A stretch of DNA of 64,000 nucleotides from Escherichia coli (GCF_003018255.1 NZ_CP027440.1), one strand, 5' to 3'; shown: positions 21,668 through 56,760, counted from the stretch's first letter. The notes: generated by a model from the letters alone, not told the origin. Numbers and translations: made by a program.

Positions 21668-21861
21668 TTTTGCCACCTTTTATCATTGCCCCTATGTGTA
21701 TAGTACGGGTTAAGAAAATCCGCAATAATACTCATTCTGAAGATGGATAAGGGCAAGTTGCTGTTTGATGTTTTTTTCTCAAACCGGTTAAAAAACTTGA
21801 TGTACGTCAAAAAATGACGCATATTTGCGCGCGTTTTATTCATCTGGCTGGACGCCCGTAC

Positions 21862-22035
21862 ATGTCTCTCTATCAACACATGCTTGTTTTTTATGCGGTT
21901 ATGGCAGCAATCGCATTTCTTATCACCTGGTTTCTTTCTCACGATAAGAAACGCATCCGTTTCTTAAGCGCCTTTCTGGTGGGGGCAACATGGCCGATGA
22001 GTTTCCCGGTGGCGCTGTTGTTTTCACTGTTTTAA
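21862..22035 (+). CDS. ortT: Small inner-membrane protein OrtT (YdcX)
   Basis: ORF 21814..22035; ATG at 21862 gives 57 aa hydrophobic protein. Confidence 0.7.
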   Translation: MSLYQHMLVFYAVMAAIAFLITWFLSHDKKRIRFLSAFLVGATWPMSFPVALLFSLF

Positions 22036-30720: not shown

Positions 30721-31338
30721 ATGATTAAGGTGCATGGCGTACCCGGATGGGGCACTACAATCAGTGAGATGATGCTAACACTGGCTGATATTCCTTATCA
30801 GTTCGTTGATGTCAGTGGTTTTGACCACGAGGGAACTTCACGCGAGTTATTGAAAACCCTGAACCCGTTGTGTCAGATTCCGACACTGGCGCTGGAAAAT
30901 GACGAGATTATGACGGAGACAGCGGCGATTGCATTGATGGTTCTCGATCGTCGCCCGGACCTTGCGCCACCGGTTGGGCGCGCCGAACGTCAGCAGTTTC
31001 AACGGCTATTGGTCTGGCTGGTTGCTAATGTCTATCCAACATTCACTTTCGCCGATTACCCTGAGCGTTGGGCTCCTGACGCACCCGAACAGTTAAAGAA
31101 TAATGTTATTGAATATCGTAAATCGCTTTATATCTGGCTGAATTCACAATTGACCGCTGAACCTTATGCGTTTGGTGAGCAACTAACGCTGGTGGACTGT
31201 TATCTTTGCACCATGCGCACATGGGGGCCGGGGCATGAATGGTTTCACGATAATGCGCAGAATATCAGCTCGATCGCTGAAGCTGTATGTCAGTTACCGA
31301 AATTACAAGAAGTATTAAAAAGGAATGAAATTATTTGA
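30721..31338 (+). CDS. yncG: Glutathione S-transferase-like protein
   Basis: 205-aa ORF; GST N- and C-domain-like. Confidence 0.8.
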   Translation: MIKVHGVPGWGTTISEMMLTLADIPYQFVDVSGFDHEGTSRELLKTLNPLCQIPTLALENDEIMTETAAIALMVLDRRPDLAPPVGRAERQQFQRLLVWLVANVYPTFTFADYPERWAPDAPEQLKNNVIEYRKSLYIWLNSQLTAEPYAFGEQLTLVDCYLCTMRTWGPGHEWFHDNAQNISSIAEAVCQLPKLQEVLKRNEII

Positions 31339-31413
31339 ATGGGATACCAGAAGATTATGTTATTTATTATTCAGTAACTTTATCCACAATGATGGACGTA
31401 ATTAATTAGATTC

Positions 31414-31626
31414 ATGTTATGTTTTTTAATTTATATCACTCTCCCTTTCATTCAGCTTGTTTATTTCATTTCCTCTGAAAAGAAACTAACTATTCACATT
31501 GTGCAGATGTTTCAGTTGTTATCACAGGCATTCTATAATCTCAAAATGTTTTTAATGATGGATATGCTCGGAGTTGGAGATGCAATTAATATTAATACAA
31601 ATAAAAATATCCGGCAGGTATGCTAA
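31414..31626 (+). CDS. yncH: Small hydrophobic protein of unknown function
   Basis: 70-aa AT-rich ORF; recognised as YncH. Confidence 0.65.
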   Translation: MLCFLIYITLPFIQLVYFISSEKKLTIHIVQMFQLLSQAFYNLKMFLMMDMLGVGDAININTNKNIRQVC

Positions 31627-32461
31627 AAGGATAAATGGCGTTCTCTGTATTTATTCGCGATTATCTGTAGGACAAATATGGAGCGCTTGATGAGTCAGAG
31701 CTAAAACAGCAATTGATAAATAAACATGTTGATTTATTCAAGAAAATGGATGTATTTCAAATATTGATTCTTAATATAACCTAATCAATAGATTATCACG
31801 TGAGAGCTGCACATTATTGGAGGGGCAGGGGAAAACACCATTTTGGGAACAATGAATCAGGTACTCTTACCACTGAAGCAAGATCATCCGGGCACCAGGT
31901 GGTGGTGCAGTGCTTTGGAAATGGTCCCCTCGGGGGAGTTGTCATTATTTTCTATGCTATTTGCTTATGATATTCATCAGGTGAATTTAATAAATTCCTA
32001 ATTTTAAATATCCACTATTAAGCCAGTGTTTAACGGCGTTAAGATGGCAATGTGCAGATCATGTTATCAGAGTGGGGCGGTAGCGTATATTCCTTATACA
32101 AACCATCATTCATTTCAATGATTGTTATTGAATTATTTATTGTTGTGAATAAAAAGACATTATGAATATTGGTTTGACTTTGCATATCAGGTTTTTTATT
32201 ATTCGCTCTAATGTACGAGCCTGTCGTGAATAACGTCGAGAACCCATCCGTTGCGTTTGTGATTATTTTGTTGACTAAACAGACACCCGTTTCTCTGAAG
32301 TAAAATCCCATACTAAATCATCACATAACCATGACATTTTTCTGATATTCCCCGGTAACGCCAGATGTCGACTCGCTTATCTCATCCGCCCGACATGTTG
32401 TACATGCAATATGTGCGGATTATTATTCATTTTCACGGAGGTTGCTATGTCAACCGGATTA

Positions 32462-33753
32462 CCAGGGAAAGATCACGTAACGCTGCTTTTTTGCACTAAA
32501 TAATTCGCATTTTATGTTTAAAAATTGAGATATTCCTCATTACCTGAAGCTGTTTTTTATTGCGTATACATGTTCAAATACTCCTTACATAATTAAGGAG
32601 AACAAAATGGAACTTAAAAAATTGATGGAACATATTTCTGTTATCCCCGATTACAGACAAGCCTGGAAAGTGGAACATAAATTGTCGGATATTCTACTGT
32701 TGACTATTTGTGCCGTTATTTCTGGTGCAGAAGGCTGGGAAGATATAGAGGATTTTGGGGAAACACATCTCGATTTTTTGAAGCAATATGGTGATTTTGA
32801 AAATGGTATTCCTGTTCACGATACCATTGCCAGAGTTGTATCCTGTATCAGTCCTGCAAAATTTCACGAGTGCTTTATTAACTGGATGCGTGACTGCCAT
32901 TCTTCAGATGATAAAGACGTTATTGCAATTGATGGAAAAACGCTCCGGCATTCTTATGACAAGAGTCGCCGCAGGGGAGCGATTCATGTCATTAGTGCGT
33001 TCTCAACAATGCACAGTCTGGTCATCGGACAGATCAGGACGGATGAGAAATCCAATGAGATCACAGCTATCCCAGAACTTCTTAACATGATGGATATTAA
33101 AGGAAAAATCATCACAACTGATGCGATGGGTTGCCAGAAAGATATCGCAGATAAGATACAAAAACAGGGCGGTGATTATTTATTCGCTGTAAAAGGAAAT
33201 CAGGGGCGGCTTAATAAAGCCTTTGAGGAAAATTTCCCACTGAAAGAATTAAATAATCCAGAGCATGACAGTTACGCAATTAGTGAAAAAAGTCACGGCA
33301 GAGAAGAAATCCGTCTTCATATTGTTTGCGATGTCCCTGATGAACTTATTGATTTCATGTTTGAATGGAAAGGTCTGAAGAAATTATGCGTGGCAGTCTC
33401 CTTTCGGTCAATAATAGCAGAACAAAAGAAAGAGCCAGAAATGACGGTCAGATATTATATCAGTTCTGCTGATTTAACCGCAGAGAAGTTCGCCACAGCA
33501 ATCCGAAACCACTGGCACGTGGAGAATAAGCTGCACTGGCGTCTGGACGTGGTAATGAATGAAGACGACTGCAAAATAAGAAGAGGAAATGCAGCAGAAT
33601 TATTTTCAGGGATACGGCACATCGCTATTAATATTTTAACGAATGATAATGTATTCAAGGCAGGGTTAAGACGTAAGATGCGAAAAGCAGCCATGGACAG
33701 AAACTACCTGGCGTCAGTCCTTGCGGGGAGCGGGCTTTCGTAATCTTTCCCTG
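32462..33753 (+). mobile_element. H-repeat element (ISAs1-family insertion sequence), copy 1, about 1292 bp with imperfect terminal inverted repeats cagggaaagatca ... taatctttccctg
   Basis: Near-identical to copy 2 at 39125..40415; ends defined by where the two copies lose similarity to each other; IRs read from sequence. Confidence 0.8.
32607..33743 (+). CDS. H-repeat-associated protein / ISAs1-family transposase (378 aa)
   Basis: 378-aa ORF with AAGGAG site; about 97 percent identical to the ORF at 39269..40405; recognised as YdcC/YhhI-type H-rpt protein. Confidence 0.85.
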
Positions 33754-34359
33754 AACACCGAGGTGCTGAATAACCGCACCACGGATGTGATAAACAACCA
33801 TGCTGAGACCATCGGCAACAATCAGGTGATTGCGGTTACCAACAATCAGATACAGACGGTGGGCGTTAACCAGATAGAGACGGTGGGCAGTAACCAGATC
33901 ATTAAAGTGGGCTCTGTTCAGGTGGAAACGATTGGACTTGTTCGTGCGCTGACCGTGGGCGTGGCGTATCAGACGACGGTAGGTGGCATTATGAACACCT
34001 CGGTGGCCCTGATGCAGTCCTCGCAGATCGGTTTGCATAAATCGTTGATGGTCGGGCTGGGTTATGACGTCAAAGTCGGAAATAACGTTACCTTCACCGT
34101 TGGTAAAACGAAAAAGGATGATACCGGACAGACCGCGATTTACTCCGCCGGTGAGCATCTGGAACTCTGCTGTGGTAAGGCAAGGCTGGTGCTGACTAAG
34201 GACGGACAAATTTTTCTCAACGGCACAAAAATTCATTTGCAGGGTAAGGAGCAGGTTAATGGTGACTCACTGTTGATTAACTGGAACTGTGCAGCCTCGA
34301 AATCCCCACCGAAGACCCCTGATGAAAAGCAGGATACGCCGGATATGAGAGAGTACTGA
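33754..34359 (+). pseudogene. VgrG (T6SS spike protein) C-terminal fragment, 5'-truncated at the H-repeat boundary
   Basis: Reading frame open from the H-rpt right end; product carries VgrG C-terminal repeat motifs (VINNHAETIGNNQVIAVTNNQIQTVGVNQIETVGSNQ...). Confidence 0.7.
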
Positions 34360-34425
34360 TCCCGTACCTGTTCGGTATTCAGTAACAAACAAGCATTAAA
34401 AATAAACAGAAGAAGGAATTGAATC

Positions 34426-37400
34426 ATGAGCGGAAAACCAGCGGCGCGTCAGGGAGATATGACTCAGTATGGCGGTCCCATTGTCCAGGGTTCGGCAGGT
34501 GTAAGAATTGGCGCGCCCACCGGCGTGGCGTGCTCGGTGTGTCCGGGCGGGATGACTTCGGGCAACCCGGTAAATCCGCTGCTGGGGGCGAAGGTGCTGC
34601 CCGGCGAGACGGACCTTGCGCTGCCCGGCCCGCTGCCGTTCATTCTCTCCCGCACCTACAGCAGCTACCGGACGAAGACGCCTGCGCCGGTGGGGATTTT
34701 TGGCCCCGGCTGGAAAGCGCCTTCTGATATCCGCTTACAGATACGCGATGATGCACTGGTACTCAACGACAACGGCGGACGGAGCATTCACTTTGAGCCG
34801 CTGCTGCCGGGTGAGGCGGTGTACAGCCGCAGCGAGTCAATGTGGCTGGTGCGCGGTGGTAAGGCAGCGCAGCCGGACGGCCACACGCTGGGGCGGCTGT
34901 GGGGGGCGCTGCCGCCGGATATCCGGTTAAGCCCGCATCTTTACCTGGCGACCAGCAGCGCACAGGGACCGTGGTGGATACTGGGGTGGTCAGAGCGGGT
35001 GCCGGGTGCTGAGGACGTACTGCCAGCGCCGCTGCCGCCGTACCGGGTGCTGACGGGGCTGGCGGACCGCTTCGGGCGGACGCTGACGTACCGGCGTGAG
35101 GCCGCCGGCGACCTGGCCGGGGAAATCACCGGCGTGACGGACGGTGCCGGGCGTGAGTTCCGTCTGGTGCTGACCACGCAGGCGCAGCGTGCGGAAGAGG
35201 CCCGCACCTCTTCGCTATCTTCTTCTGACCGTCCCCGCCCTCTCTCAGTCTCAGCGTTCCCCGACACACTGCCCGGTACCGAATACGGCCCCGACAGGGG
35301 TATCCGCCTTTCGGCGGTGTGGCTGATGCACGACCCGGCATACCCGGAGAGCCTGCCCGGTGCGCCACTGGTGCGGTACACGTATACGGAAGCCGGTGAA
35401 CTGCTGGCGGTATATGACCGCAGCAATACGCAGGTGCGCGCTTTCACGTATGACGCGCAGCACCCGGGCCGGATGGTGGCGCACCGTTACGCGGGAAGGC
35501 CGGAGATGCGCTACCGCTACGACGATGCGGGGCGGGTGGTGGAGCAGCTGAACCCGGCAGGCCTGAGTTACCGCTACCAGTATGAGCAGGACCGCATCAC
35601 CGTCACCGACAGCCTGAACCGGCGTGAGGTGCTGCATACAGAAGGCGGGGCCGGGCTGAAGCGGGTGGTGAAAAAAGAACTGGCGGACGGCAGCGTCACG
35701 CACAGCGGGTATGACGCGGCAGGAAGGCTCACGGCACAGACGGACGCGGCGGGACGGCGGACAGAGTACGGCCTGAATGTGGTGTCCGGCGATATCACGG
35801 ATATCACCACGCCGGACGGGCGGGAGACGAAATTTTACTATAACGACGGGAACCAGTTAACGGCGGTGGTGTACCCGGACGGGCTGGAGAGCAGCCGGGC
35901 ATATGATGAGCTGGACAGACTGGTATCGGAGACATCGCGCAGCGGGGAGACAGTACGCTACCGCTACGATGACGTGCACAGTGAGTTACCGGCGACGACA
36001 ACGGATGCGACGGGCAGCACCCGGCAGATGACCTGGAGCCGCTACGGGCAGTTGCTGGCCTTCACCGACTGCTCGGGCTACCAGACCCGCTATGAATACG
36101 ACCGCTTCGGCCAGATGACGGCGGTTCACCGCGAGGAAGGTATCAGCCTTTACCGCCACTATGACAACCGTGGCCGGTTAACCTCGGTGAAAGACGCACA
36201 GGGCCGTGAAACGCAGTATGAGTACAACGCCGCAGGCGACCTGACTGCCGTTATCACCCCGGACGGCAACCGGAGCGAGACACAGTACGATGCGTGGGGA
36301 AAGGCGGTCAGCACCACGCAGGGCGGGCTGACGCGCAGTATGGAGTACGATGCTGCCGGACGTGTCATCAGCCTGACCAACGAGAACGGCAGTCACAGCG
36401 ACTTCAGCTACGATGCGCTGGACCGCCTGGTACAGCAGGGCGGCTTTGACGGGCGGACGCAACGTTATCATTATGACCTGACCGGAAAACTCACGCAGAG
36501 TGAAGATGAGGGGCTTGTCATCCTCTGGTACTACGATGAATCGGACCGTATCACTCACCGCACGGTGAACGGCGAACCGGCAGAGCAGTGGCAGTATGAT
36601 GGCCACGGCTGGCTGAGAGAAATCAGCCACCTGAGCGAAGGCCACCGTGTTGCCGTCCACTATGGCTACGACGATAAGGGCCGTCTGACCGGGGAGCGCC
36701 AGACGGTGGAGAACCCGGAGACGGGGGAACTGCTGTGGCAGCATGAGACGAAACAGGCATACAACGAACAGGGGCTGGCAAACCGCGTCACGCCGGACAG
36801 CCTGCCGCCGGTGGAGTGGCTGGCCTATGGCAGCGGTTATCTGGCGGGCATGAAGCTGGGCGGGACGCCGCTGCTGGAGTACATGCGGGACAGACTGCAC
36901 CGGGAGACGGTGCGCAGCTTCGGCAGCATGGCAGGCAATACAGCCGCATATGAACTGACCAGCACTTACACCCCCGCAGGCCAGTTACAGAGCCGGCACC
37001 TGAACAGCCTGGTGTTTGATTGTGACTATAACTGGAATGACAACGGCGACCTGATGCGCATCAGCGGCCCGCGACAGACGCGGGAATACGGCTACAGCGC
37101 CACGGGCAGGCTGGAGAGCGTGCGCACCCTCGCACCGGACCTGGACATCCGCATCCCGTATGCCACCGACCCGGCGGGCAACCGGCTGCCGGACCCGGAG
37201 CTGCACCCGGACAGTACACTCACAGTGTGGCCGGATAACCGAATCACCGAAGACGCGCACTACCTGTACCGTTACGATGAATACGGCAGGCTGGCGGAGA
37301 AGACGGACCGCATCCCGGCGGGTGTGATACGGACGGACGACGAGCGGACCCACCACTACCACTACGACAGCCAGCACCGCCTGGTGTTCTATACGCGGAT

Positions 37401-38586
37401 ACAGCATGGCGAGCCACTGGTCGAGAGCCGCTACCTTTACGACCCGCTGGGCCGCCGGACGGGTAAACGGGTATGGCGGCGGGAGCGTGACCTGACGGGG
37501 TGGATGTCGCTGTCGCGTAAACCGGAGGTGACGTGGTACGGCTGGGACGGCGACCACCTGACGACGGTGCAGACCGACACCACGCGTATCCAGACGGTAT
37601 ATCAGCCGGGGAGCTTCGCGCCGCTCATCCGCATCGAAACAGACAACGGTGAGCGGGAGAAAGCGCAGCGCCGCAGCCTGGCGGAGAAGCTGCAGCAGGA
37701 AGGGAGCGAGGACGGGCACGGCGTGGTATTTCCGGCTGAACTGGTGCGGCTGCTGGACAGACTGGAGGAAGAAATCCGGGCAGACCGCGTGAGCAGTGAA
37801 AGCCGGGCGTGGCTTGCGCAGTGCGGGCTGACGGTGGAGCAACTGGAAAAACAGGTGGAGCCGGAATACACACCGGCGCGAAAAGTTCATCTTTACCACT
37901 GCGACCACCGGGGACTGCCGCTGGCGCTTATCAGCGAAGACGGCAATACGGTGTGGAGCGCGGAGTATGATGAATGGGGAAACCTGCTTAATGAGGAGAA
38001 CCCGCATCATGTGTATCAGTCATACCGTCTGCCGGGGCAGCAGCATGATGAGGAGTCGGGGCTGTACTACAACCGGAACCGGTACTACGATCCGTTGCAG
38101 GGGCGGTATATCATCCAGGACCCGATAGGGCTGGCGGGGGGAATAAACCCGTACAGTTATGTTATGAACAATCCTGTGCAATGGATTGATCCATTGGGAT
38201 TAGCTCATACTTCAGGAAAATGGAAGGACTGTGGTAAAGGTTGTCGAATCCGAATAGATGGCGATGCTGTTGGTGACGGAAGACATTTGCATTGGGAGTG
38301 TAAAAATGGGAGTGGTGTAATGGGGGAATTTGGAGGTATGTCCCATGGTGAGGATTACTCATCAGCACCAAATAGCATTAAGAAATGTGCAAAAAAATAT
38401 GGTTTCGAGCCAGAACCAAGTAAAGATCTGTCATGCAAAACCTCCGGGCTATCAACTACTGATGCGGCTCTTGCAACTGGTGCTACAATTGGCGCAGGGT
38501 ATGTTATATATAGAGTGATTCGATTTATACCTTCACTTGCACCACCTCTTTGGTGGTCAATACCTGCAAACGTTGTTACTCCATGA
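34426..38586 (+). CDS. rhsE: Rhs-family polymorphic toxin with N-terminal PAAR motif, YD-repeat core and divergent C-terminal domain (1386 aa)
   Basis: Literal PAAR at residues 5-8 ([11 protein letters not shown]); numerous YD repeats; conserved core end DPIGLAGG...DPLGL at 38119-38202; sharp GC-rich to AT-rich switch after about 38160. Confidence 0.9.
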
Positions 38587-38612
38587 TTAAAACGGATAAT
38601 GGAGATTATATA

Positions 38613-38957
38613 ATGAGCGATTTTGACATTGTGAGTTCAATTGACTGGCATGATGGGGTTTTGTTAGAAGTAAAAACGACATTCAAAGAATCTCATTTTA
38701 ACATGACGTTATTTATTGACATTTATAAAAATGAGAACATTAGGGAAAAAATGATAGTTGAATTTTCTGATGTAGATGATTTAGTGTTCGCTATGGATTC
38801 TGCTGAGTTAATCGATAATCACAAGTCAGGTAATATAAGTAATGGGTATGTAAAGAAATTAAAAAACAAAAGGATATATAAATTTTTTCTTTATTTTTCT
38901 GATGGCTTATTAAGCATGACATTTAAAAATTTACAATTAATAAAACCATTAGAGTAA
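38613..38957 (+). CDS. Putative Rhs immunity protein (small AT-rich ORF downstream of the Rhs C-terminal domain)
   Basis: ORF 38550..38957; ATG 38613 preceded by GGAG at 8-nt spacing (114 aa); alternative ATG 38583 overlaps the rhsE stop as ATGA (124 aa); position and AT-richness typical of Rhs immunity genes. Confidence 0.55.
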   Translation: MSDFDIVSSIDWHDGVLLEVKTTFKESHFNMTLFIDIYKNENIREKMIVEFSDVDDLVFAMDSAELIDNHKSGNISNGYVKKLKNKRIYKFFLYFSDGLLSMTFKNLQLIKPLE

Positions 38958-39124
38958 CCAAATAAAAGGACTGGAGGAATCAGGGGAAGATCATTAAAGT
39001 TGTGATTATCATCACAACTTTAATCTTGGTTTCACCTTGTTGATTTGATTAAAATTTAATCGCCAAATAATTAAATATATTAGAAAAGGACGTCTGGTGA
39101 ACATTCAAAGTCTTCTTGAGCATA

Positions 39125-40415
39125 CAGGGAAAGATCATCAGAAGTACACTTTTTGTACTAAATAATTCGCATTTTATGTTTAAAAATTGAGATATTCCTC
39201 ATTACCTAAAGCTGTTTTTTATTGCTTATACATGATCAAATACTCCTTACATAATTAAGGAGAACAAAATGGAACTTAAAAAATTGATGGGACATATTTC
39301 TATTATCCCCGATTACAGACAAACCTGGAAAGTGGAACATAAATTGTCAGATATTCTACTGTTGATTATTAGTGCCGTTATTTCTGGTGCAGAAGGCTGG
39401 GAAGATATAGAGGATTTTGGGGAAACACATCTCGATTTTTTAAAGCAATATGGTGATTTTAAAAATGGTATTCCTGTTCACGATACCATTGCCAGAGTTG
39501 TATCCTGTATCAGTCCTGCAAAATTTCACGAGTGCTTTATTAACTGGATGCGTGACTGCCATTCTTCAGATGATAAAGACGTCATTGCAATTGATGGAAA
39601 AACGCTCCGGCATTCTTATGACAAGAGTCGTCGCAGGGGAGCGATTCATGTCATTAGTGCATTCTCAACAATGCACAGTCTGGTCATCGGACAGATCAGG
39701 ACGGATGAGAAATCTAATGAGATTACAGCTATCCCTGAACTTCTTAACATGCTGGACATTAAAGGAAAAATTATCACAACTGATGCGATGGGTTGCCAGA
39801 AAGATATTGCAGAGAAGATACAAAAACAGGGAGGTGATTATTTATTCTCTGTAAAAGGAAACCCGGGGCGGCTGAATAAAGCTTTTGAGGAAAAATTTCC
39901 ACTGAAAGAATTAAATAATCCAGAGCATGACAGTTACGCAATTAGTGAAAAGAGTCACGGCAGAGAAGAAATCCGTCTTCACATTGTTTGCGATGTCCCT
40001 GATGAACTTATTGATTTCACGTTTGAATGGAAAGGTCTGAAGAAATTATGCGTGGCAGTCTCCTTTCGGTCAATAATAGCAGAACAAAAGAAAGAGCCAG
40101 AAATGACGGTCAGATATTATATCAGTTCTGCTGATTTAACCGCAGAGATGTTCGCCACAGCAATCCGAAACCACTGGCACGTGGAGAATAAGCTGCACTG
40201 GCGTCTGGACGTGGTAATGAATGAAGACGACTGCAAAATAAGAAGAGGAAACGCCGCAGAATTATTTTCAGGGATACGGCACATCGCTATTAATATTTTA
40301 ACGAATGATAAGGTATTCAAGGCAGGGTTAAGACGTAAGATGCGAAAAGCAGCCATGGACAAAAACTATCTGGCGTCAGTCCTTGCGGGGAGCGGGCTTT
40401 CGTAATCTTTCCCTG
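39125..40415 (+). mobile_element. H-repeat element (ISAs1-family insertion sequence), copy 2, about 1291 bp, same orientation as copy 1
   Basis: Near-identical to 32462..33753 including terminal inverted repeats. Confidence 0.8.
39269..40405 (+). CDS. H-repeat-associated protein / ISAs1-family transposase (378 aa)
   Basis: 378-aa ORF with AAGGAG site; paralogue of 32607..33743. Confidence 0.85.
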
Positions 40416-40419
40416 TATT

Positions 40420-40707
40420 GTGAAATCATCAAGAGTACATATAGATCATGATAAAGATATTTTTGATGGCCTTGACAAAATCTTGGCTTTTTCCGATAAA
40501 AATAAGCATGAGTATTTTTTATATATAAAGGCATATTGGCTCAGTTTATACTTTTGTGAAATTTCTCAGAAAGTGAGAGAAAGAGATAAGTTGTCATTTT
40601 ATTATGATGAATTTTCTGTCCGATTTCCTAATGTTGTCCTATATCCGACATACTTCCAATTGCATGGTTTAGCATCTGAAAAGTCATTGTTAATTCGAGA
40701 CGCTTGA
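40420..40707 (+). other. AT-rich reading frame open from the H-repeat right boundary (95 codons); probable 3' remnant of a gene truncated by the insertion
   Basis: Frame is open right at the element end; no recognisable product. Confidence 0.3.
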
Positions 40708-40986: not shown

Positions 40987-41454
40987 ATGATTATACGACC
41001 AGTCAAACCTTCAGATGTTGAACCATTACTGGATATGCTGCTTGCCAGTGGACAATTTAATCAAGATGGCCTTCATCATGTACAAAAAACACTAACACAT
41101 TATTTCTCAGGTCAATCTGCCGATTTATGGTTTAGTGCAGAACACTTAGGACTGGCAGGGATTGCCTATTGCGCTCCTGAAGTGATGACAAATGATGTCT
41201 GGAATTTATTAATGCACTGGATCAGTCCTTCCCATCAGCGCCAGGGAGTGGGACATCTGCTGATTAACGAAATAGAAAAGGAGCTCACAATTAAACAGGC
41301 AAGACTACTTTTAGTAGAGACCTCCAGCTATGTCGATTTTAGTGCCGCCCGCGCATTTTATACATAACAGGGCTTTATCAATGAAGCTATAATACGCAAT
41401 TACTATGATGTTGGTGAGGATAAATTAATCTTCACTAAAAATATGCAATCGTGA
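40987..41454 (+). pseudogene. GNAT-family N-acetyltransferase interrupted by an in-frame TAA at 41365-41367
   Basis: ORF 40987..41367 (126 aa) continues in the same frame for 28 more codons to TGA 41452-41454; sequence around the stop reads AFYT*QGF versus the GNAT consensus FY.K.GF. Confidence 0.6.
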
Positions 41455-44178: not shown

Positions 44179-44859
44179 TTAACGCCGCGAACGCACAATC
44201 TGATACCGACGAGTAAAGTACTCAAACGGCGCGCTCCAGACATGCACCAGTCGGGTGAACGGGAAGAGCAGGAAGATGGTCATTCCAAGCACCAGATGAA
44301 CGCGGAATATAAAGGCGACACCATCAAGATGCGTAGATGCACCGCCCTGGAAAGTGACAATGCTTTGCGCCCAGCCCACCAGCTTCATCATTTCACTGCC
44401 GTCCGGATGTTGTGCTGAAAAAGGAATGGTGGTTAACCCAAGAATGCACTGAATTAACAAAATGGCGAGGATCAGGATATCCGCACCAGAAGACGTCGCC
44501 CTGATACGCGGATTTGTTAAACGACGCACCAGTAGCCCCGCACCGCCAATCAGCGTCAATACCCCGCATATTCCGCCGAGGATCATCGCCATCTGCTGTT
44601 TTACCGCCACCGGCAGAAACCACGCGTACATCCAGTGCGGCGTTAACATGCCGAACAGATGACCGAAGAAGATCCCCAGAATGCCGATATGGAACAAGTT
44701 CGACCATAGCACCATCCCGCGTTTATCCAGCATCTGGCTGGAGGCGGCACGCCAGGTATACTGCCCGTAATCGTAGCGCAGCCAGCTTCCAAGGATAAAA
44801 ACCGTGCCACACAAGTACGGGTAGATATCGTAAAAAAAGACGTTCAGATACTGAATCAT
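44179..44859 (-). CDS. narV: Nitrate reductase Z gamma subunit (cytochrome b)
   Basis: 226-aa hydrophobic ORF at the end of the narZYWV operon. Confidence 0.9.
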
Positions 44860-45551
44860 TTCCCACCTCCCGCACTGATGTCGACATACTGCGGCGCGAC
44901 ATCCTGGCTAAAGCGTCGCTGATATTGATTAAGCGGCGAGCTGTCACACGCCGTGGCGTTATCTTCAATAAACTTCACCTGTTCTTCTTCCCACACCGCA
45001 TCCAGCGCCTGGCGGGTGTCGTCACGCTCTTCACTGCGAATCTGTTTTGTGACACTGTCACTTGATAGAGGGCTTCCTGCCAGTTGCAACAGGGCGTCAA
45101 ATAACGCGTACCACGGTGCCTCGCGTTGTTTTAAGCGTCCGCCAAGCAGGGCGAGGATCGGCGCAACGTTGAGTAATCCTTCTTTCGCCTGATCGTCCGG
45201 AAGTATGCTTAAATACTCCAGATACAGCGGTAGATAATCGGGCAGTTCCCTACAATTCAGTTGCAGACCGACCTTTTCATACTCCGCCAGCAGGTCCACC
45301 ATTGCCTGGCCGCGATCGCGGGACTCGGCATGAACATGTTCAAACAGCAGCAGCGACGTGGTGCGCCCGCGGTCAAACACTTCACACCATTCGGCCTGTT
45401 TATCCAGCAGCGGCGCGTTGAGCAGGTCGAGTGCAAAATCGGTGAGCATCGGTGCGTCGCGGCGGATCAACGCCAGCGCGTCCTCCTTACATTCCCACAA
45501 CAGCTCGTCCGGATACTCCATCAACAGGCCGATCACTTTGAGGATCTGCAT
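44856..45551 (-). CDS. narW: Nitrate reductase Z assembly chaperone (delta)
   Basis: 231-aa ORF overlapping narV by 4 nt. Confidence 0.9.
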
Positions 45552-47095
45552 TATTCGCCCTCCGCTTTGTCGCGCACTTCGGTGATGTTGATGGCATCGA
45601 TACGGCTACTGTTGAACAGGTTGAATTTGCTGTCCGAGCCGTGGCAACCGTCGCCAAAGGTAAAACCGCAGCCATTGCGTTCTGCGAAGGCATCGCCCGC
45701 CATTTCCCGATGACTGGTTGGAATGACAAAACGGTCTTCATAGTTGGCAATGGCGAGGTAGCGATACATCTCTTCGACCTGGGCGACGCTCAGGCCTACT
45801 TCGTCAATGGCGCGGGTATCGGTAACGCCTTCCACGGTTTGTGAACGCATATAGTGGCGCATCGCCATCATCCGTTTTAGCGCCCGCAGTACCGGACCGG
45901 TATCGCCAGCACTTAACATATTGGCGAGATATTGCACAGGAATACGCAGGCTTTCGATGGCGGGCAGCACGCCTTCGCTTTTCGGCAAGCCGCCCGCATC
46001 AGCGTAGGACTGAATCGGTGACAGCGGAGGAACGTACCAGACCATCGGCAGGGTGCGATATTCAGGGTGCAGCGGTAGCGCCAGTTTCCAGTCCATCGCC
46101 ATTTTGTAGACTGGCGAACGCTGGGCAGCTTCAATCACGTTTTGTGGAATACCTTGTTTCAGGGCTTCTTCGATCACTGAGGGATCGTGCGGATCGAGGA
46201 ACACTTCGCACTGGCGTTCATAGAGGTCAACTTCGCGCTCGGTGCTCGCCGCTTCCTCGATGCGGTCGGCGTCGTAAAGCAGCACGCCCAGATACCGGAT
46301 GCGACCCACGCAGGTTTCTGAGCACACGGTGGGTTGGCCTGACTCAATTCGTGGGTAACAGAAGATGCATTTTTCTGACTTGCCGCTTTTCCAGTTGAAG
46401 TAGATTTTTTTGTACGGACAACCGCTAATGCACAAACGCCAGCCACGGCATTTATCCTGATCGATCAGCACAATGCCGTCTTCTTCGCGTTTGTAGATAG
46501 CGCCGCTTGGGCAGGTCGCCACGCAGCTGGGATTGAGGCAGTGTTCGCACAAGCGCGGTAGGTACATCATGAAGGTGTTTTCAAACTGCCCGTACATCTC
46601 CTTTTGCATGGCCTCGAAGTTGCGGTCACGGGCGCGTTTTTCGAATTCGCCGCCCAACAATTCTTCCCAGTTTGGCCCCCAGATCACTTTGTCCATCCGT
46701 TTGCCGTCAATCAGTGAACGCGGGCGAGCAGTAGGGATATGTTTGCCTTCCGGTGCGCTATGCAAATGTTCGTAGTCGAAGGTGAAAGGTTCGTAGTAAT
46801 CATCAATCTGCGGCACCACCGGGTTGGCGAAGATTTTGGTTATTACGCCCATCTTGCTGCCCAGACGCGGGCGGATCTTGCCATTCACATCACGCACCCA
46901 GCCGCCTTGCCACTCTTCCTGATCTTCCCAGTTTTTCGGATAACCAATGCCCGGTTTGGTTTCGACGTTGTTAAACCATGCGTACTCCATGCCTTCGCGT
47001 CCGGTCCAGACGTTTTTACAGGTCACCGAACAGGTATGGCAGCCGATACATTTATCGAGGTTAAGCACCATGCCGACTTGCGAACGTATTTTCAT
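45551..47095 (-). CDS. narY: Nitrate reductase Z beta subunit (Fe-S)
   Basis: 514-aa ORF with multiple Cys clusters (CIGCHTCSVTCK, CEHCLNPSCVATCP...). Confidence 0.9.
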   Translation of the reverse strand: MKIRSQVGMVLNLDKCIGCHTCSVTCKNVWTGREGMEYAWFNNVETKPGIGYPKNWEDQEEWQGGWVRDVNGKIRPRLGSKMGVITKIFANPVVPQIDDYYEPFTFDYEHLHSAPEGKHIPTARPRSLIDGKRMDKVIWGPNWEELLGGEFEKRARDRNFEAMQKEMYGQFENTFMMYLPRLCEHCLNPSCVATCPSGAIYKREEDGIVLIDQDKCRGWRLCISGCPYKKIYFNWKSGKSEKCIFCYPRIESGQPTVCSETCVGRIRYLGVLLYDADRIEEAASTEREVDLYERQCEVFLDPHDPSVIEEALKQGIPQNVIEAAQRSPVYKMAMDWKLALPLHPEYRTLPMVWYVPPLSPIQSYADAGGLPKSEGVLPAIESLRIPVQYLANMLSAGDTGPVLRALKRMMAMRHYMRSQTVEGVTDTRAIDEVGLSVAQVEEMYRYLAIANYEDRFVIPTSHREMAGDAFAERNGCGFTFGDGCHGSDSKFNLFNSSRIDAINITEVRDKAEGE

Positions 47096-50000
47096 TTTTT
47101 CGCCTCCTGTACCTGATCGCGACCTTCATCATCCAGCCAGTTAACGTTCTTCATCTTGCGGATCATGATGAATTCGTCACGGTTCGAGCCGACGGTGCCG
47201 TAGTAATTAAAGCCCCAGGCCAGCTGCGCGTAACCGCCAATCATATGCGTTGGTTTCGGACAAACGCGGGTGACCGAGTTATGAATGCCGCCGCGCATGC
47301 CAGTTACTTCCGAACCAGGAATATTCATAATGCGTTCCTGGGCGTGATACATCATGGTCATACCCGGCGGTACACGTTGGCTGACCACCGCGCGGGCAGT
47401 CAGCGCGCCGTTGGCGTTAAACACTTCCACCCAGTCGTTATCGACAATGGTCAGTTCACGGGCATCGGTTTCGCTAATCCAGACAATCGGTCCACCGCGA
47501 GAGAGCGTCAGCATTAGCAGGTTTTCACTGTAGGTTGAGTGAATGCCCCATTTCTGATGCGGCGTCAGGAAGTTAAGTGCTTTTTCCGGGAAGCCGTTTG
47601 GCGGTATCTGGCGCATTTCACTGACGCTACGGGTGTCGATAGGCGGGCGATAAGCCACCAGGCTTTCACCAAAAGCACGCATCCACGGATGATCCTGATA
47701 GAGCTGCTGGCGTCCCGACAGCGTGCGCCACGGAATTAACTCATGAACGTTGGTGTACCCCGCGTTATAGGAAACGTGATCGCTTTCCAGACCGGACCAT
47801 GTGGGGCTGGAGATAATTTTACGTGGCTGCGCCTGAATATCGCGAAAGCGAATCTTCTCGTCCTCTTTGTGCAGCGCCAGATGGGTATGTTCGCGTCCGG
47901 TGATCTCGCCCAGCGCCTGCCACGCTTTGACTGCAACATGACCATTGGTTTCCGGTGCAAGAGCCAGAATCACTTCTGATGCGTCAATGGCGGTGTCAAT
48001 CAGCGGACGCCCCTGTGCCGGGCCTTCACGCTTGGTGTAGTTGAGTTTGCCGAGGAAATCGATTTCATCCTGGGTATTCCACGAAATCCCTTTACCGCCG
48101 TTGCCAAGTTTGTCCATCAATGGCCCGAGCGAGGTAAAGCGTTCATAGGTAGCAGGGTAGTCGCGTTCCACCGCTACAATATTCGGCGCGGTTTTACCCG
48201 GGATCAGATCGCATTCGCCTTTGCGCCAGTCGAGCACTTCACACGGCTGGGAGAGTTCTGCCGGAGAGTCATGCAGCAGTGGTTGTAATACCACGTCGGT
48301 TTCTTTGCCAAGATGGCCCACGCACACTTGCGAAAATGCTTTGGCAATACCTTTGTAGATTTCCCAGTCGCTGCGTGATTCCCAGGCCGGATCGACCGCC
48401 GCAGAAAGCGGATGAATAAATGGATGCATATCCGAGGTGTTCATATCGTCTTTTTCATACCAGGTGGCGGTGGGCAGAACGATATCGGAGAACAGGCAGG
48501 TACTGGACATACGGAAGTCGAGCGTCACCAGCAGGTCGAGCTTGCCTTCAATCGCCGCAGTTTGCCACTCGACTTCTTCTGGTTTGATCCCGTCGCTGGC
48601 ACCGAGTTCCTCACCCTGAATCCCACTTTCGGTTCCCAGCAGATACTTCTGCATATACTCGTGACCTTTGCCGGAGGAGCCAAGCAGGTTAGAACGCCAG
48701 ACAAACAAATTACGCGGATGATTGCTGCCCCTATCTGGTTGTTCGCAGGCCATGCGTAAATCGCCCGATTTCAGCGCCTGGGCGGTGAATTCTGTGGGGG
48801 ATAATCCGGCCTTGTCGGCTTCAGCTTTAATCCCGAGCGGGTTACACCCCAGCTGCGGCGCAGAAGGTAGCCAGCCCATACGTTCGGCACGAACGTTGAA
48901 ATCAATCAGATGACCGCTGTACTTACTGGCATCGGCGAGCGGTGAAAGTAACTCCTGAGCAGAGACTTTTTCATAGCGCCATTGACTGGAATGATTGTAG
49001 AAAAACGAGGTGCTGTTCATCTGGCGCGGTGGGCGGTTCCAGTCGAGCGCAAAGGCCAGCGGCAACCAGCCAGTTTGTGGGCGCAGTTTTTCCTGACCGA
49101 CATAGTGTGCCCATCCGCCACCGCTTTGCCCGACACAACCGCAGAAGATCAGCATATTGATCATTCCCCGGTAGTTCATGTCCATGTGGTACCAGTGGTT
49201 AACACCTGCGCCGAGGATAATCATCGAGCGCCCATGCGTTTTATGGGCAGTATCGGCAAATTCACGAGCGATGGTTTCAATATACTGGCGCGGCACACCG
49301 GTAATTTGCTCACCCCAGGCTGGGGTGTACGGTTTGATTTCAGCGTAATCTTTCGCGCTGTTTTCATCTTCCAGCCCGCGATCGAGGCCGTAATTCGCCA
49401 GTACCAAATCATAAACGCTGACCACCGGACAGGTGTTGCCATCGGCTAATGTCAGGTTTTTAACGGGCAATTGGCGCACCAGGACCGGATTGTGTTTTAC
49501 GCTGCGAAAATGCGGATTTTCAATGCCGCCAAAGTAGGGGAAGGCCACGCCTGCAACGGCATCATGTTGACCGAGCAGAGTTAACGACAATTCGGTTTCC
49601 GTACCGGCGGCAATGGATTCCAGATTCCATTTGCCTTTTTCTCCCCAGCGAAAACCAATCGAACCGTTCGGCACCACCAGTTCGCCTGCTGTATTAACTG
49701 CTACGGTTTTCCACTGCGGATTGTTGCTTTCGCCCAGTCCATCTACCAGGTCAGACGCGCGGATCATGCGCCCGGGTACGTAGCTGCCATCGTCGCGAGG
49801 TTCCAGCATTACCAGCATCGGCATGTCGCTGTAGCGGCGGCAGTAGTTGATAAAGTAGTCGCTGGGATTATCGAGATGAAACTCTTTTAAAATCACATGG
49901 CCCATTGCCATCGCCAGGGCGCTATCAGTGCCTTGTTTTGGTGCCAGCCACTGGTCGCACAATTTGGCCACTTCAGAGTAGTCAGGGGTAATTGCGATGG

Positions 50001-50832
50001 TTTTAGTGCCTTTGTAGCGTACTTCGGTAAAGAAATGGGCGTCCGGCGTACGTGTCTGCGGTACGTTAGACCCCCAGGCGATGATGTAACTGGAGTTATA
50101 CCAGTCGGCAGATTCTGGCACGTCGGTTTGCTCACCCCAGGTCATCGGCGAGGCGGGCGGCAGGTCGCAATACCAGTCGTAGAAGCTTAAACAGGTGCCA
50201 CCTAACAGCGACAGATAGCGTGTTCCGGCGGCGTAAGAAACCATCGACATCGCCGGAATCGGCGAGAACCCGGCAACGCGATCCGGGCCGTAAGTTTTGA
50301 TGGTCCAGACGTTAGCGGCGGCAATCAGCTGATTTAGCTCCTGCCAGTTGGAGCGGATAAAGCCACCGCGTCCACGCACTTGTTTATAGCTCAGGCACTT
50401 TTGCGGATCGTTCATAATCGATGCCCACGCCAGTACCGGATCGCTGTGTTGCTTGAGGGCTTCGCGCCACAGTTCAATCAGTCGTTTACGAATGAGCGGG
50501 TATTTCAGGCGGTTAGCGCTGTAGAGATACCAGGAGTAACTTGCGCCACGCGGGCAGCCGCGAGGTTCATGATTTGGCAGGTCAGGGCGAGTGCGCGGGT
50601 AGTCGGTCTGTTGGATTTCCCAGGTCACCAGACCATTTTTAACGTAGATTTTCCAGCTACAGGAGCCTGTACAGTTAACACCGTGGGTGGAACGCACGAT
50701 TTTGTCGAACTGCCAACGCTGGCGATAGCTGTCCTCCCAGTCGCGGTTGCTGTGCATCACCTGTCCGTGACCATCGGCAAAGGTTTCGCCCTTTTGTTTA
50801 AAGTAGCGAAAGCGATCCAAAAGTTTACTCAT
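47092..50832 (-). CDS. narZ: Nitrate reductase Z alpha subunit (molybdopterin catalytic subunit)
   Basis: ORF 47092..50955; start set at ATG 50832 (MSKLLDRFRYFKQ...) giving 1246 aa; overlaps narY by 4 nt. Confidence 0.9.
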   Translation of the reverse strand: MSKLLDRFRYFKQKGETFADGHGQVMHSNRDWEDSYRQRWQFDKIVRSTHGVNCTGSCSWKIYVKNGLVTWEIQQTDYPRTRPDLPNHEPRGCPRGASYSWYLYSANRLKYPLIRKRLIELWREALKQHSDPVLAWASIMNDPQKCLSYKQVRGRGGFIRSNWQELNQLIAAANVWTIKTYGPDRVAGFSPIPAMSMVSYAAGTRYLSLLGGTCLSFYDWYCDLPPASPMTWGEQTDVPESADWYNSSYIIAWGSNVPQTRTPDAHFFTEVRYKGTKTIAITPDYSEVAKLCDQWLAPKQGTDSALAMAMGHVILKEFHLDNPSDYFINYCRRYSDMPMLVMLEPRDDGSYVPGRMIRASDLVDGLGESNNPQWKTVAVNTAGELVVPNGSIGFRWGEKGKWNLESIAAGTETELSLTLLGQHDAVAGVAFPYFGGIENPHFRSVKHNPVLVRQLPVKNLTLADGNTCPVVSVYDLVLANYGLDRGLEDENSAKDYAEIKPYTPAWGEQITGVPRQYIETIAREFADTAHKTHGRSMIILGAGVNHWYHMDMNYRGMINMLIFCGCVGQSGGGWAHYVGQEKLRPQTGWLPLAFALDWNRPPRQMNSTSFFYNHSSQWRYEKVSAQELLSPLADASKYSGHLIDFNVRAERMGWLPSAPQLGCNPLGIKAEADKAGLSPTEFTAQALKSGDLRMACEQPDRGSNHPRNLFVWRSNLLGSSGKGHEYMQKYLLGTESGIQGEELGASDGIKPEEVEWQTAAIEGKLDLLVTLDFRMSSTCLFSDIVLPTATWYEKDDMNTSDMHPFIHPLSAAVDPAWESRSDWEIYKGIAKAFSQVCVGHLGKETDVVLQPLLHDSPAELSQPCEVLDWRKGECDLIPGKTAPNIVAVERDYPATYERFTSLGPLMDKLGNGGKGISWNTQDEIDFLGKLNYTKREGPAQGRPLIDTAIDASEVILALAPETNGHVAVKAWQALGEITGREHTHLALHKEDEKIRFRDIQAQPRKIISSPTWSGLESDHVSYNAGYTNVHELIPWRTLSGRQQLYQDHPWMRAFGESLVAYRPPIDTRSVSEMRQIPPNGFPEKALNFLTPHQKWGIHSTYSENLLMLTLSRGGPIVWISETDARELTIVDNDWVEVFNANGALTARAVVSQRVPPGMTMMYHAQERIMNIPGSEVTGMRGGIHNSVTRVCPKPTHMIGGYAQLAWGFNYYGTVGSNRDEFIMIRKMKNVNWLDDEGRDQVQEAKK

Positions 50833-50868
50833 GACATAACTCCTGCTCCAGGAATGAATTGGGATCTG

Positions 50869-50920
50869 ATGCCTTGTCGGATGCGACACGGTTGTAGCCT
50901 GATAAGACGTGTCAGGCATC
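50869..50920. repeat. REP-like palindromic element between narU and narZ
   Basis: gtagcctgataagacgtgtcaggcatc resembles the REP consensus. Confidence 0.45.
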
Positions 50921-50926
50921 GATCTC

Positions 50927-52315
50927 TTATTTTTGGCTGAACTTCCGCCGACCATAAACCAGCCAGGTCAGTAGCACACAAACGATGTAGAAGATTAAAA
51001 ACACTTTCATCGCGCCCACCGGAGAGCCGGTCATATTGAGCGACATGCCAAACGCCTGCGGAATAAAAAAGCCGCCCACTGCGCCAATGGCTGAGATAAA
51101 GCCCAGAGCGGCTGCCGTTTCGGTGATGGCTTCTCTTTGAGCTTGCTCATCACTACCGCCTTTCATCTTCACCCGATAAATTGTTATCTGGCGAAAGATG
51201 ACGGCGATCATCTGGAAAGTAGAACCACTTCCCAGACCCGCGGTCAGAAACAGCCCCATAAATACGGCGTAAAATGCGATGAAATTACCGGAGCCTGTGC
51301 CCGGTAAGGTAAGGAACAGCAGGGCGCTGAAAATCGCCATAAAAATGAAGTTGATCAACGTCACCCGCACGCCGCCGAATTTATCGGAAATAGCACCACC
51401 AACCGATCGCGCGATGGCACCGATAAATGGGCCAAAGAACGCCAGGCGCAGAATATTCACATCCGGGAACTGGGTTTTTGCCAGCATGGCAAAACCCGCA
51501 GAAAAACCGATAAACGAACCGAAGGTGGCAAGGTAAAGCAGGCTCAGCAGCCAGAGATGCAGGCGTTGTAAGACAGGGAGCTGGTCGGCAATTGAGGCGC
51601 GTGAACTGGCGATATCATTCATCCCTGACCAGGCGGCGATCGTGGCAATCGCCAGTAATGGCACCCAAATCCATGCGGCATTCGCCAGCGACATCACCGA
51701 ACCGTCGGCCTGCGGTACGCCATTGACGCCGAGAAAGGCAAATACGGGGACAAAAATGACCAGCGGTGCAACCAGCTGCATCACACTTACACCTAAGTTT
51801 CCTAATCCGCCATTAATCCCAAGAGCGCTCCCTTGTTTGGCTTTTGGAAAGAAGAAACTGATATTGCCCATGCTCGAAGCAAAGTTCGCACCTGCAAAAC
51901 CGCATAGCAAAGCGATAACGATAAATATCCCAAAAGGAGTATTCGGATTCTGCACGGCAATTCCGAGCCAGACGCAAGGAATAATCAGGATTGCAGTACT
52001 AAAAACCGTCCATCGGCGTCCACCGAATATAGGCACCATAAAGGAGTAGGGGACACGCAATAATGCGCCAGAAACGGAGGGTAATGCGGTTAATAAAAAG
52101 AGTTGATCGGTAGTGAAATTAAAACCGATTTTATTGAGATTAACAGTAACTGCGCTAAATAGCATCCAGACACAGAAGGCAAGAAGTAGGCAACTGACTG
52201 ATATCCAGAGGTTTCTTCGTGCAATATGCTTTCCTTTATTTTCCCAGAAGGCCGGATTTTCTGGTTTCCAGTCGCGTAAAAGATAACGACTATTTTTCTC
52301 ATTTTGCAGTGCCAT
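50927..52315 (-). CDS. narU: Nitrate/nitrite transporter (MFS)
   Basis: ORF 50927..52357; start set at ATG 52315 (MALQNEKNSRYLLRDW...) giving 462 aa. Confidence 0.85.
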   Translation of the reverse strand: MALQNEKNSRYLLRDWKPENPAFWENKGKHIARRNLWISVSCLLLAFCVWMLFSAVTVNLNKIGFNFTTDQLFLLTALPSVSGALLRVPYSFMVPIFGGRRWTVFSTAILIIPCVWLGIAVQNPNTPFGIFIVIALLCGFAGANFASSMGNISFFFPKAKQGSALGINGGLGNLGVSVMQLVAPLVIFVPVFAFLGVNGVPQADGSVMSLANAAWIWVPLLAIATIAAWSGMNDIASSRASIADQLPVLQRLHLWLLSLLYLATFGSFIGFSAGFAMLAKTQFPDVNILRLAFFGPFIGAIARSVGGAISDKFGGVRVTLINFIFMAIFSALLFLTLPGTGSGNFIAFYAVFMGLFLTAGLGSGSTFQMIAVIFRQITIYRVKMKGGSDEQAQREAITETAAALGFISAIGAVGGFFIPQAFGMSLNMTGSPVGAMKVFLIFYIVCVLLTWLVYGRRKFSQK

Positions 52316-52587
52316 ATTGTTCCTCACATGCACACATTGGTAATGAAAAAAAGACAAAACAGGAGGTAAGGCGCAATAGCCAGTTATTAGAATTAAGGAT
52401 GAATCAGGTGAAGTGCTGATTAGAAGAATAGATAAGAAAGCGTAACTGCGGGGGCAGAATGTGGATTAAACAGACAGATATGTGTTACTAAATGTAACTA
52501 AAATGGCTTTCTGGTATTTGAAATTTATTTTTTAATATTGTCAGAATTTATCTGATTAACTGCCGGGCCGTAGACCCGACAATTATT

Positions 52588-53469: not shown

Positions 53470-53559
53470 GCTCGCTGTTTTGTCTCTCTTGCCGTTAAAA
53501 ATTAAGCTGAATTTTATAGCATTTTTTTAACTGGCCTGTCAGGCAGTGGTGCGTTTTTC

Positions 53560-53636: not shown

Positions 53637-53700
53637 AAAGATTCAGAATTTTACTGTTAGTTTCCTCGCGCAGTAATACCCCTGAAAAAAGAGGAAAGCA

Positions 53701-56748: not shown

Positions 56749-56760
56749 GGGGGCGAACAG

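Follow-up and report, generated by a model that had tools for sequence, protein, structure and literature searches.

In Escherichia coli (GCF_003018255.1, NZ_CP027440.1), a stretch of 64,000 nucleotides, here called the window and numbered from its first letter, contains the rhsE locus, which by the annotations of strains JNE112863, 19KM1776 and K-12 lies between yncG-yncH on one side and yddH-nhoA on the other. The synteny of this slot is shared with K-12, 19KM1776, JNE112863, DETEC-S792 and ATCC 8739. On the + strand, a 212-amino-acid (aa) open reading frame (ORF; 33721-34359) is followed by a 1386-aa ORF (34426-38586) and a small ORF ending at 38957; this vgrG'-rhs-rhsI set has a 378-aa ORF on either side (32607-33743 and 39269-40405). 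The G+C content is 61-69% over the Rhs core; in the downstream gene and in the 400 bp that end rhs it falls to 30-39%, which is the classic Rhs pattern. A 4.2-kb open frame in DNA of 62-69% G+C between tips of 30-40% G+C is no chance ORF. The analysis described here makes it probable that RhsE represents an 'orphan' (accessory) effector island for a type VI secretion system (T6SS), in which the spike gene is dead and a Tse5-like Rhs protein with a bipartite toxin tip may be loaded in trans.

A megablast search with positions 33700-39000 against 5426 complete E. coli genomes matched nearly all of them through the Rhs core, with a median of five places per genome matching the core. The best match was JNE112863 (99.9%), and the window is collinear with this strain across all 64 kb, at 99.9% identity for positions 1-45000 and 98.9% for positions 44785-64000.

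Disruption of vgrG and comparison with K-12 rhsE

Strain 19KM1776 (locus L002), in which the gene order is yncH, vgrG (703 aa), rhs, a small gene and ydcC, served as the intact-locus reference and was compared with the window by blastn. Positions 31219-32462 correspond to the vgrG upstream region, kept at 31219-32446, plus nucleotides 1-16 of vgrG. These first 16 nt (ATG plus 5 codons; 32447-32462, + strand) read ATGTCAACCGGATTAC, are identical to the start of intact vgrG in 19KM1776 (L002 6500-6515) and run directly into the end of an insertion sequence (IS), CAGGGAAAGAT. The IS is an ISAs1-family element (H-repeat) of 1291 bp at 32463-33753 on the + strand, with inverted ends and a transposase ORF at 32607-33743 that matches the NCBIfam model transpos_ISAs1 (E 5e-124). 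It stands in place of vgrG nucleotides 17-1501 (codons 6-500), so that 1485 bp have been lost. A second ISAs1 element (H-repeat), also of 1291 bp and on the + strand, occupies 39125-40415 in the position of K-12 ydcC; it is about 96% identical to the upstream copy and is annotated as ydcC or ISAs1 transposase in relatives. No target-site duplication accompanies either ISAs1 element. The event at vgrG was therefore not a simple insertion but a 1485-bp deletion associated with the IS, or else two IS copies recombined. The two direct-orientation copies bracket vgrG'-rhs-rhsI in a composite-transposon-like layout, and they would also allow loss of the whole module by homologous recombination.

On the far side of the IS, a vgrG pseudogene at 33754-34359 (+ strand) retains codons ~501-702 plus the stop, i.e. 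the beta-helical spike and the C-terminal region. It lacks its own start codon as well as the gp27/gp5 base, does not share the reading frame of the transposase, and is 99.0-99.5% identical to residues 501-702 of intact VgrG proteins. In relatives, PGAP/RefSeq lists the remnant as a pseudogene ('gp5 trimerisation domain, missing N-terminus'). The initial annotation was thus right in placing a 5'-truncated vgrG remnant from 33754, which is the exact IS/vgrG junction, at codon ~501 of 703. It also called the module complete, which does not hold, because the island's own spike gene was destroyed by the IS-associated deletion; with codons 1-5 and ~501-702 alone left, rhs has no functional vgrG partner alongside it. 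The same IS/vgrG junction occurs in three of the 5426 complete E. coli genomes, JNE112863, JNE23-011 and DETEC-S792. The architecture of DETEC-S792 matches the window precisely, and the two Japanese strains, JNE112863 and JNE23-011, have one extra ISAs1 upstream.

The name vgr ('Val-Gly repeat') goes back to Hill's group, who in 1998 first gave it to genes of the RhsG and RhsE elements. The K-12 RhsE element resides in the same slot (yncG-yncH ... ydcC-(pptA)-yddH-nhoA) and likewise has a GC-rich core, an AT-rich tip and an associated ISAs1/H-repeat. However, K-12 lacks vgrG and the first ~729 rhs codons, whereas in the window rhs is full length, a second ISAs1 cuts vgrG, and the place of pptA is taken by a GNAT gene. 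The K-12 pseudogene (b1456, 682 codons) aligns with residues 730-1259 of the window's Rhs only, at 89% identity over 530 aa, and diverges wholly after the DPxGL motif into a different toxin tip. The downstream gene differs as well, encoding 114 aa here and 160 aa (ydcD) in K-12. The suggestion that this is an intact version of K-12 rhsE therefore stands as far as K-12 having a truncated pseudogene is concerned, and fails for the tip and the immunity gene. The locus is not identical to the K-12 pseudogene, its C-terminal domain consists of a conserved head and a Tox-WTIP tail, and it is a full-length Rhs at the rhsE locus with another toxin/immunity tip, not simply an 'intact K-12 rhsE'. Intact rhs genes at the rhsE slot of E. 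coli W, B and Crooks were tabulated in 2011, with the K-12 copy marked as a pseudogene (PMC3032704).

Architecture of the Rhs protein, its toxin tip and its immunity gene

The rhs gene (34426-38586) is a single ORF of 1386 aa with zero internal stops, in agreement with the initial annotation of a full-length protein, and no frameshift or stop had been missed. Pfam models identified DUF6531 (aa 46-123), at least 10 RHS repeats (best E 7e-12), an RHS core (aa 1154-1190 by offset, E 4e-18) and Tox-WTIP at the extreme C-terminus. By sequence, the best solved relative is Tse5 of Pseudomonas aeruginosa (PA2684; PDB 8cp6; E 2e-119), whose N-terminal fragment (Tse5-NT) was called 'PAAR-like' by its authors and is necessary for secretion (PMC10684867). 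Tse5 uses VgrG1c, and cleavage of its C-terminal toxin (CT) is essential for toxicity (PMC10684867). The two proteins are in register in the length and boundary of the N-terminal fragment as well as in the C-terminal protease and cleavage residues. The Tse5 shell chain starts at P48 (PVNPMLGSK...), aligned with P48 of the E. coli Rhs (PVNPLLGAK...), and ends at L1168 (DPTGL), aligned with L1259 (DPLGL), and the catalytic Tse5 residues D1141 and D1164 correspond to D1232 and D1255. Cleavage of the E. coli protein is thus predicted at L1259|A1260. By homology, Rhs would consist of a 47-residue N-terminal piece, a cocoon and an encapsulated tip of 127 residues. The shell (aa 48-1259; 34567-38202, + strand) comprises the DUF6531 plug, YD/RHS repeats, the RHS core and an aspartyl autoprotease motif ending in DPLGL. 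Further likenesses to Tse5 are the absence of a prePAAR/transmembrane-domain region and of an Eag chaperone gene, and a vgrG directly upstream in intact loci. The toxin tip, however, has no sequence similarity to Tse5-CT, and the E. coli immunity protein has no transmembrane-like segment.

The N-terminal fragment (aa 1-47; 34426-34566, + strand) is a putative PAAR-like mini-domain, with one PAAR repeat and a Cys-rich stretch, and is equivalent to Tse5-NT. A canonical PAAR domain (PF05488) has about 90-100 residues in three repeats that form a cone; the Rhs has about 30 residues and one repeat. The Pfam PAAR_motif match on aa 3-20 is not significant (E=0.22), and residues 2-29 align weakly (E 0.1-0.45) with only the last of the three repeats in the PAAR structures 4jiv and 9rce. 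On its sequence the N-terminus would be better described as PAAR-like than as PAAR, so the label 'PAAR-Rhs' needs softening; its Rhs half, by contrast, was borne out by the shell and core models of Pfam.

The tail of the tip (aa 1347-1386; 38464-38583, + strand) is a hydrophobic Tox-WTIP segment. It matches PF15654 with an E-value of 1.4e-12 over model positions 40-79 of 79 only, and carries the RxxR motif as RVIR (R1363..R1366) and the WxSIP motif as WWSIP (W1376..P1380). The RxxR and Wx[ST]IP motifs of Tox-WTIP were defined by Zhang and colleagues, who predicted WTIP itself, on sequence grounds, to be a pore-forming toxin (Zhang et al., 2012; PMC3482391). A literature search for 'Tox-WTIP' or PF15654 found them in a single searchable paper and returned no experimental work. 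These C-terminal 40 residues are the likeness of the E. coli tip to Tox-WTIP; the difference is that a conserved head, uncovered by Pfam, precedes them here, and that immunity specificity goes with this head.

Relatives of the tip were sought by scanning aa 1259-1386 against 1.84 billion representative proteins. This yielded 350 relatives, 166 of which were retrieved and re-scanned with phmmer: the head (the first ~70 residues) was found in 75, WTIP (the last ~45 residues) in 108 and both in 17. The head (aa 1260-1329, or CT residues 1-70, where the CT number plus 1259 gives the Rhs number; 38203-38412, + strand) has conserved residues C1269, C1273, H1287, H1289, W1290, C1292, E1301, H1307 and C1321. 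In an alignment of 52 homologues, H28, W31, C33, H48 and C62 (CT numbering) are invariant, and C10, C14, H30 and E42 are nearly so. AlphaFold2 predicts four beta-strands and one helix for the head with a predicted local distance difference test (pLDDT) score of ~90-95, and neither a Pfam model nor a relative in PDB or AFDB was matched. The head appears to be widespread on proteobacterial Rhs proteins. In nearly every homologue a Pro-rich linker leads from it to a short hydrophobic tail at the C-terminus; several types of tail occur, WTIP being one of them. In the E. coli protein the WTIP tail is modelled as a single helix (CT 88-107; pLDDT ~45-65), and it is only moderately hydrophobic, with a Kyte-Doolittle 19-residue maximum of 1.3 and no segment as high as 1.6.

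Conversely, WTIP closes many proteins whose preceding regions are unrelated, including a YD-shell protein in a phage-like neighbourhood and a protein with the core of an extracellular contractile injection system (eCIS). In loci L009 and L021 it ends, respectively, a 2028-aa YD-shell protein next to phage-like genes (Gp10_C, M23+LysM lysin) and an eCIS_core protein, so this tail is shared across T6SS, phage-like and eCIS delivery contexts. A Pfam scan of 30 other WTIP-bearing C-termini recovered no known toxin family ahead of WTIP, a result that neither supports nor refutes the tail as an anchor. A combined head and WTIP tip, 67% identical to the E. coli one, was also observed in Paraburkholderia lycopersici (L005 3001-9528) at the end of a single 1965-aa polypeptide in which a complete VgrG is joined to an Rhs. 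There the fusion gene is followed by an immunity homologue and then by a separate 84-aa PAAR gene, i.e. the Rhs is covalently on the spike and the PAAR cap is separate.

Downstream of rhs, the immunity gene rhsI (38613-38957, + strand) encodes a soluble, all-beta protein of 114 aa with an Imm50-like fold. The listed ORF spans 38550-38957, and the supported start is the ATG at 38613, which has GGAG 8 nt upstream and lies 27 nt after the rhs stop; the resulting N-terminus, MSDF..., is common with the Paraburkholderia orthologue and supports this start. An alternative ATG at 38583 overlaps the rhs stop codon and would make the product 10 residues longer. The protein has the same sequence as WP_001279013.1 and has no transmembrane-like segment, unlike the membrane immunity proteins of pore-formers. 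It matched no Pfam or NCBIfam model, and Pfam gave none even at E<=10 for either the E. coli or the Paraburkholderia protein. However, its AlphaFold2 model is all-beta (pLDDT 91.7), and Foldseek placed this model on an AFDB entry named 'Immunity protein 50 of polymorphic toxin system' (TM-scores 0.82/0.77, E 3.7e-7), with further named members at 0.64-0.68. The likeness to Imm50 (PF15594 as named in UniProt) thus lies in a shared predicted fold, and one source names the Paraburkholderia orthologue 'Immunity protein 50'. The differences are the missing family-profile match and the fact that the published Imm50 partners, Tox-HHH/EHHH and Ntox24 (PMC3482391), are not detectably related to the head. 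Just 3' of the gene, at 38993-39024, is a perfect 14-bp AT-rich hairpin (ATTAAAGTTGTGAT tatc ATCACAACTTTAAT), terminator-like with a weak T-tract.

An immunity role had been proposed for the small ORF from its position, and the homologous loci bear this out. Among the other loci examined, all five with a head-bearing toxin had an immunity homologue directly 3' of it, whether the tail was WTIP (L005 and L007) or of another type (L008, L012 and L014). The family was absent after all four WTIP-only toxins examined (L009, L015, L020 and L021), and in L009, L020 and L021 the downstream genes encode mutually unrelated soluble proteins. Immunity tracks the head, not WTIP. In L014 (6769-7467), the immunity domain is tandemly duplicated within one 232-aa protein after a head-bearing Rhs toxin.

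Type VI secretion context and competing explanations

As PAAR-Rhs proteins are normally T6SS cargo, the initial annotation pointed to the lack of T6SS genes around this one. The lack itself is real: no T6SS structural gene is present in the window, and the collinear span of JNE112863, annotated from trg through ddpF, has none. The implied anomaly of an effector with no T6SS does not follow. JNE112863 carries a T6SS-1 cluster beside the aspV tRNA at 0.24-0.26 Mb, ~1.25 Mb from its rhsE island, comprising tssA, B, C, E, F, G, H, J, K, L (icmH/dotU) and M, tagH, vasI, two hcp genes, vgrG and rhs. The T6SS-1 tssBC genes were detected in ~2200 of the 5426 complete genomes and in all three junction-sharing strains, which were the top three matches of the search (100, 100 and 99.8% identity). 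Islands of vgrG-rhs away from the main T6SS cluster have been described in a review (PMC6730261) and are a normal E. coli arrangement. Because all three relatives have T6SS-1 elsewhere, and remote islands are normal, a T6SS-free 64 kb is unremarkable.

The island closely resembles the vgrG-rhs pair of the main cluster of JNE112863 (WP_001561468.1 / WP_456287057.1). Across the aligned 201 residues, the VgrG of the main cluster does not differ from the remnant in the window. The two Rhs proteins are ~100% identical as far as aa ~1210, after which the tips differ. At the DNA level, the stretch running from the vgrG 3' end into rhs, of which it takes in ~3.7 kb, shows 99.54% identity over 4389 bp. 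Both pairs have a 66-bp vgrG-rhs spacer and an identical PAAR-like N-terminus and shell; they differ in the last ~50 core residues, the toxin tip and the immunity gene, and the main-cluster vgrG is intact.

The locus can be explained as follows. The ancestral order would have been vgrG - rhs - rhsI. An ISAs1/H-repeat now takes the place of vgrG codons 6-500, so that the island's own spike gene is dead; rhs and its immunity gene are intact. The 47-residue PAAR-like piece would dock on a VgrG spike, and the YD-repeat cocoon would enclose the 127-residue toxin, cut after L1259 by the aspartyl autoprotease. As the relative's main VgrG equals the remnant, and its main Rhs has the same N-terminus and shell, the island Rhs could plausibly be loaded in trans by the paralogous main-cluster VgrG; the strain would then have two toxins on one spike type, and the loss of the island vgrG need not disable the toxin. 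The Cys4/His3 head would be recognized by the cytoplasmic Imm50-like protein and would act at the cytoplasmic face. With moderate confidence, the head is probably the active, metal-binding module, and the Tox-WTIP tail most likely inserts or anchors it at the target inner membrane. The presence of a His triad, four Cys and an Imm50-like partner also raised the idea of an HNH/EndoVII (beta-beta-alpha-Me; Tox-HHH, Tox-EHHH) nuclease, but no profile or fold match was obtained and it is kept as a lead only.

Several points count against this explanation. The PAAR_motif match noted above is not significant, and docking in trans on a paralogous VgrG is something we infer from sequence resemblance. 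The T6SS itself is deduced from three close relatives, one of which is 99.9% identical over 45 kb, the window's own genome having been seen for 64 kb; its activity is not assured either, as the accessory VasL-domain gene of JNE112863 T6SS-1 is annotated as frameshifted (L004 24174-25584). The IS, which separates rhs from the vgrG promoter region, may have a polar effect. Further, the head could be placed in no enzymatic fold or family, and the sole published opinion on WTIP is that it is a pore-forming toxin (PMC3482391).

Whether the island is still in use may be judged partly from its distribution. The DNA of tip plus immunity gene (38200-38957) was found in 404 of the 5426 complete genomes (~7%), and the tip also occurs in Salmonella. 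Among 39 full-length tip matches in a spread sample, five were fused to a full-length rhs and 34 were in a displaced 'RHS repeat-associated core' fragment; in ATCC 8739 the rhs at this locus is interrupted by IS1 and has orphan tips behind it, the second of which is this one. Displaced Rhs tips have been described as accumulating as orphans (PMC3032704). The rhs copies of the junction-sharing strains, all open, differ from that of the window in patches typical of gene conversion. Since these differences are patchy conversion mosaics, the counts of synonymous and nonsynonymous differences among relatives (e.g. 72 and 44) are unusable as a selection test. Such observations, together with the destroyed vgrG, the position of the island between two direct ISAs1 copies and the 99.54% identity of the two JNE112863 rhs loci, would suit a silent relic. 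According to this explanation the island is unexpressed, or its Rhs unloaded, since the loss of vgrG, conversion with the main rhs keeps the ORF open, and selection keeps the immunity gene against neighbours firing the same tip, as would fit a tip mostly found as a displaced, non-deliverable orphan with its immunity gene (34 of the 39 matches; ATCC 8739). We consider this unlikely, given that the rhs ORF, its ribosome-binding site and both autoprocessing motifs are intact in four of four known carriers of the IS/vgrG junction and that a matching VgrG is at hand in trans. Within the IS, the + strand showed no strong terminator-like site, in a scan that was at chance level overall; indeed, scans for promoters and terminators near the IS and near the immunity gene found as many sites as in shuffled controls and are uninformative on rhs transcription. 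A role independent of T6SS, with the Rhs/immunity pair acting like a toxin-antitoxin system inside the producer and the linked vgrG and T6SS irrelevant, has a precedent in the Rhs of Salmonella Typhimurium (PMC7043789), and K-12 keeps intact rhsA-D yet has no T6SS (PMC3032704, Table 6 for rhsA-D). It appears highly improbable here, as the protein is built like a delivered effector, with a PAAR-like N-terminus in register with Tse5-NT, a shell and autoprocessing sites; the island is a near-exact duplicate of the T6SS-1 vgrG-rhs pair, the three closest relatives all have T6SS, and no sequence feature favours an intracellular role.

The effector island remaining the preferred explanation, a separate question is which part of its tip is toxic. 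We tentatively propose a two-part toxin, in which a Cys4/His3 head of ~70 residues is specified by the immunity protein and WTIP is one of several interchangeable membrane-insertion tails. The alternative, that the WTIP tail is the toxin, would have its two hydrophobic helices form an inner-membrane pore and dissipate the potential as Tse5-CT does, with the head as an accessory or pre-toxin. The Pfam match with both motifs and the prediction of Zhang and colleagues agree with it, as does the pore-forming CT of Tse5, the closest solved Rhs (PMC10684867), and in the 30 other proteins the heads ahead of WTIP hit none of the enzymatic toxin families known to Pfam. However, the immunity family accompanies the head in five of five loci and WTIP-only toxins in none of four, which makes WTIP as the toxic principle hard to reconcile, and the genes after three WTIP-only toxins are unrelated and soluble, although the immunity protein of a pore-former is normally a membrane protein. 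It is the head that is the best-conserved and confidently folded part, with an invariant His triad, and most homologues combine it with non-WTIP hydrophobic tails; the E. coli tail, for its part, reaches a hydropathy maximum of 1.3 and has no sequence similarity to Tse5-CT. A toxic WTIP tail is therefore rather doubtful.

Neighbouring features and significance

Beyond the second ISAs1, a GNAT-family acetyltransferase gene (40987-41367) lies between the H-repeat and yddH, where K-12 and ATCC 8739 have pptA (tautomerase). An AT-rich ORF of 95 aa (40420-40707) begins 5 nt past the right end of the second ISAs1. Its DNA is conserved in 19KM1776, it is unannotated in relatives and had no match in an NCBIfam search; an orphan immunity gene is one possibility. 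The E. coli backbone in the window also carries, judging from collinearity with the annotated relative, small toxin or toxin-antitoxin genes unrelated to the rhs module: hicAB, ortT and a relE/parE-family toxin with yddM/higA (~13740-14376, ~21841-22014 and ~58342-58904). Identity to JNE112863 falls near narI/narW, from 3-5 mismatches per block in 1-45000 to 205 mismatches in the 19.2 kb of 44785-64000, and this drop from 99.9% to 98.9% suggests a recombination boundary within the window.

Systems of this kind are known already, and RefSeq has near-identical sequences under the same annotation. The locus shows in textbook fashion how Rhs tips are displaced and how ISs move about; in itself it is of little weight, as it adds one further state to an Rhs element well known for its instability. 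It illustrates, as far as can be inferred from sequence, how a strain may lose the spike gene of an island while the toxin stays usable via a paralogous VgrG. For genome scans, it indicates that a T6SS effector island is to be judged against the whole genome and not against a 64-kb window. What is mildly new is the head domain, so far uncharacterised, together with the argument from comparison for WTIP as a tail rather than the toxin. If the tip is indeed a two-part toxin, the view of WTIP as the toxic principle held by Pfam and by Zhang and colleagues would be wrong, and the head and its partner would constitute a new toxin/Imm50-like immunity pair. The research value thus lies in the toxin tip, where the evidence that immunity follows the head provides a directly testable hypothesis on an uncharacterised interbacterial toxin.

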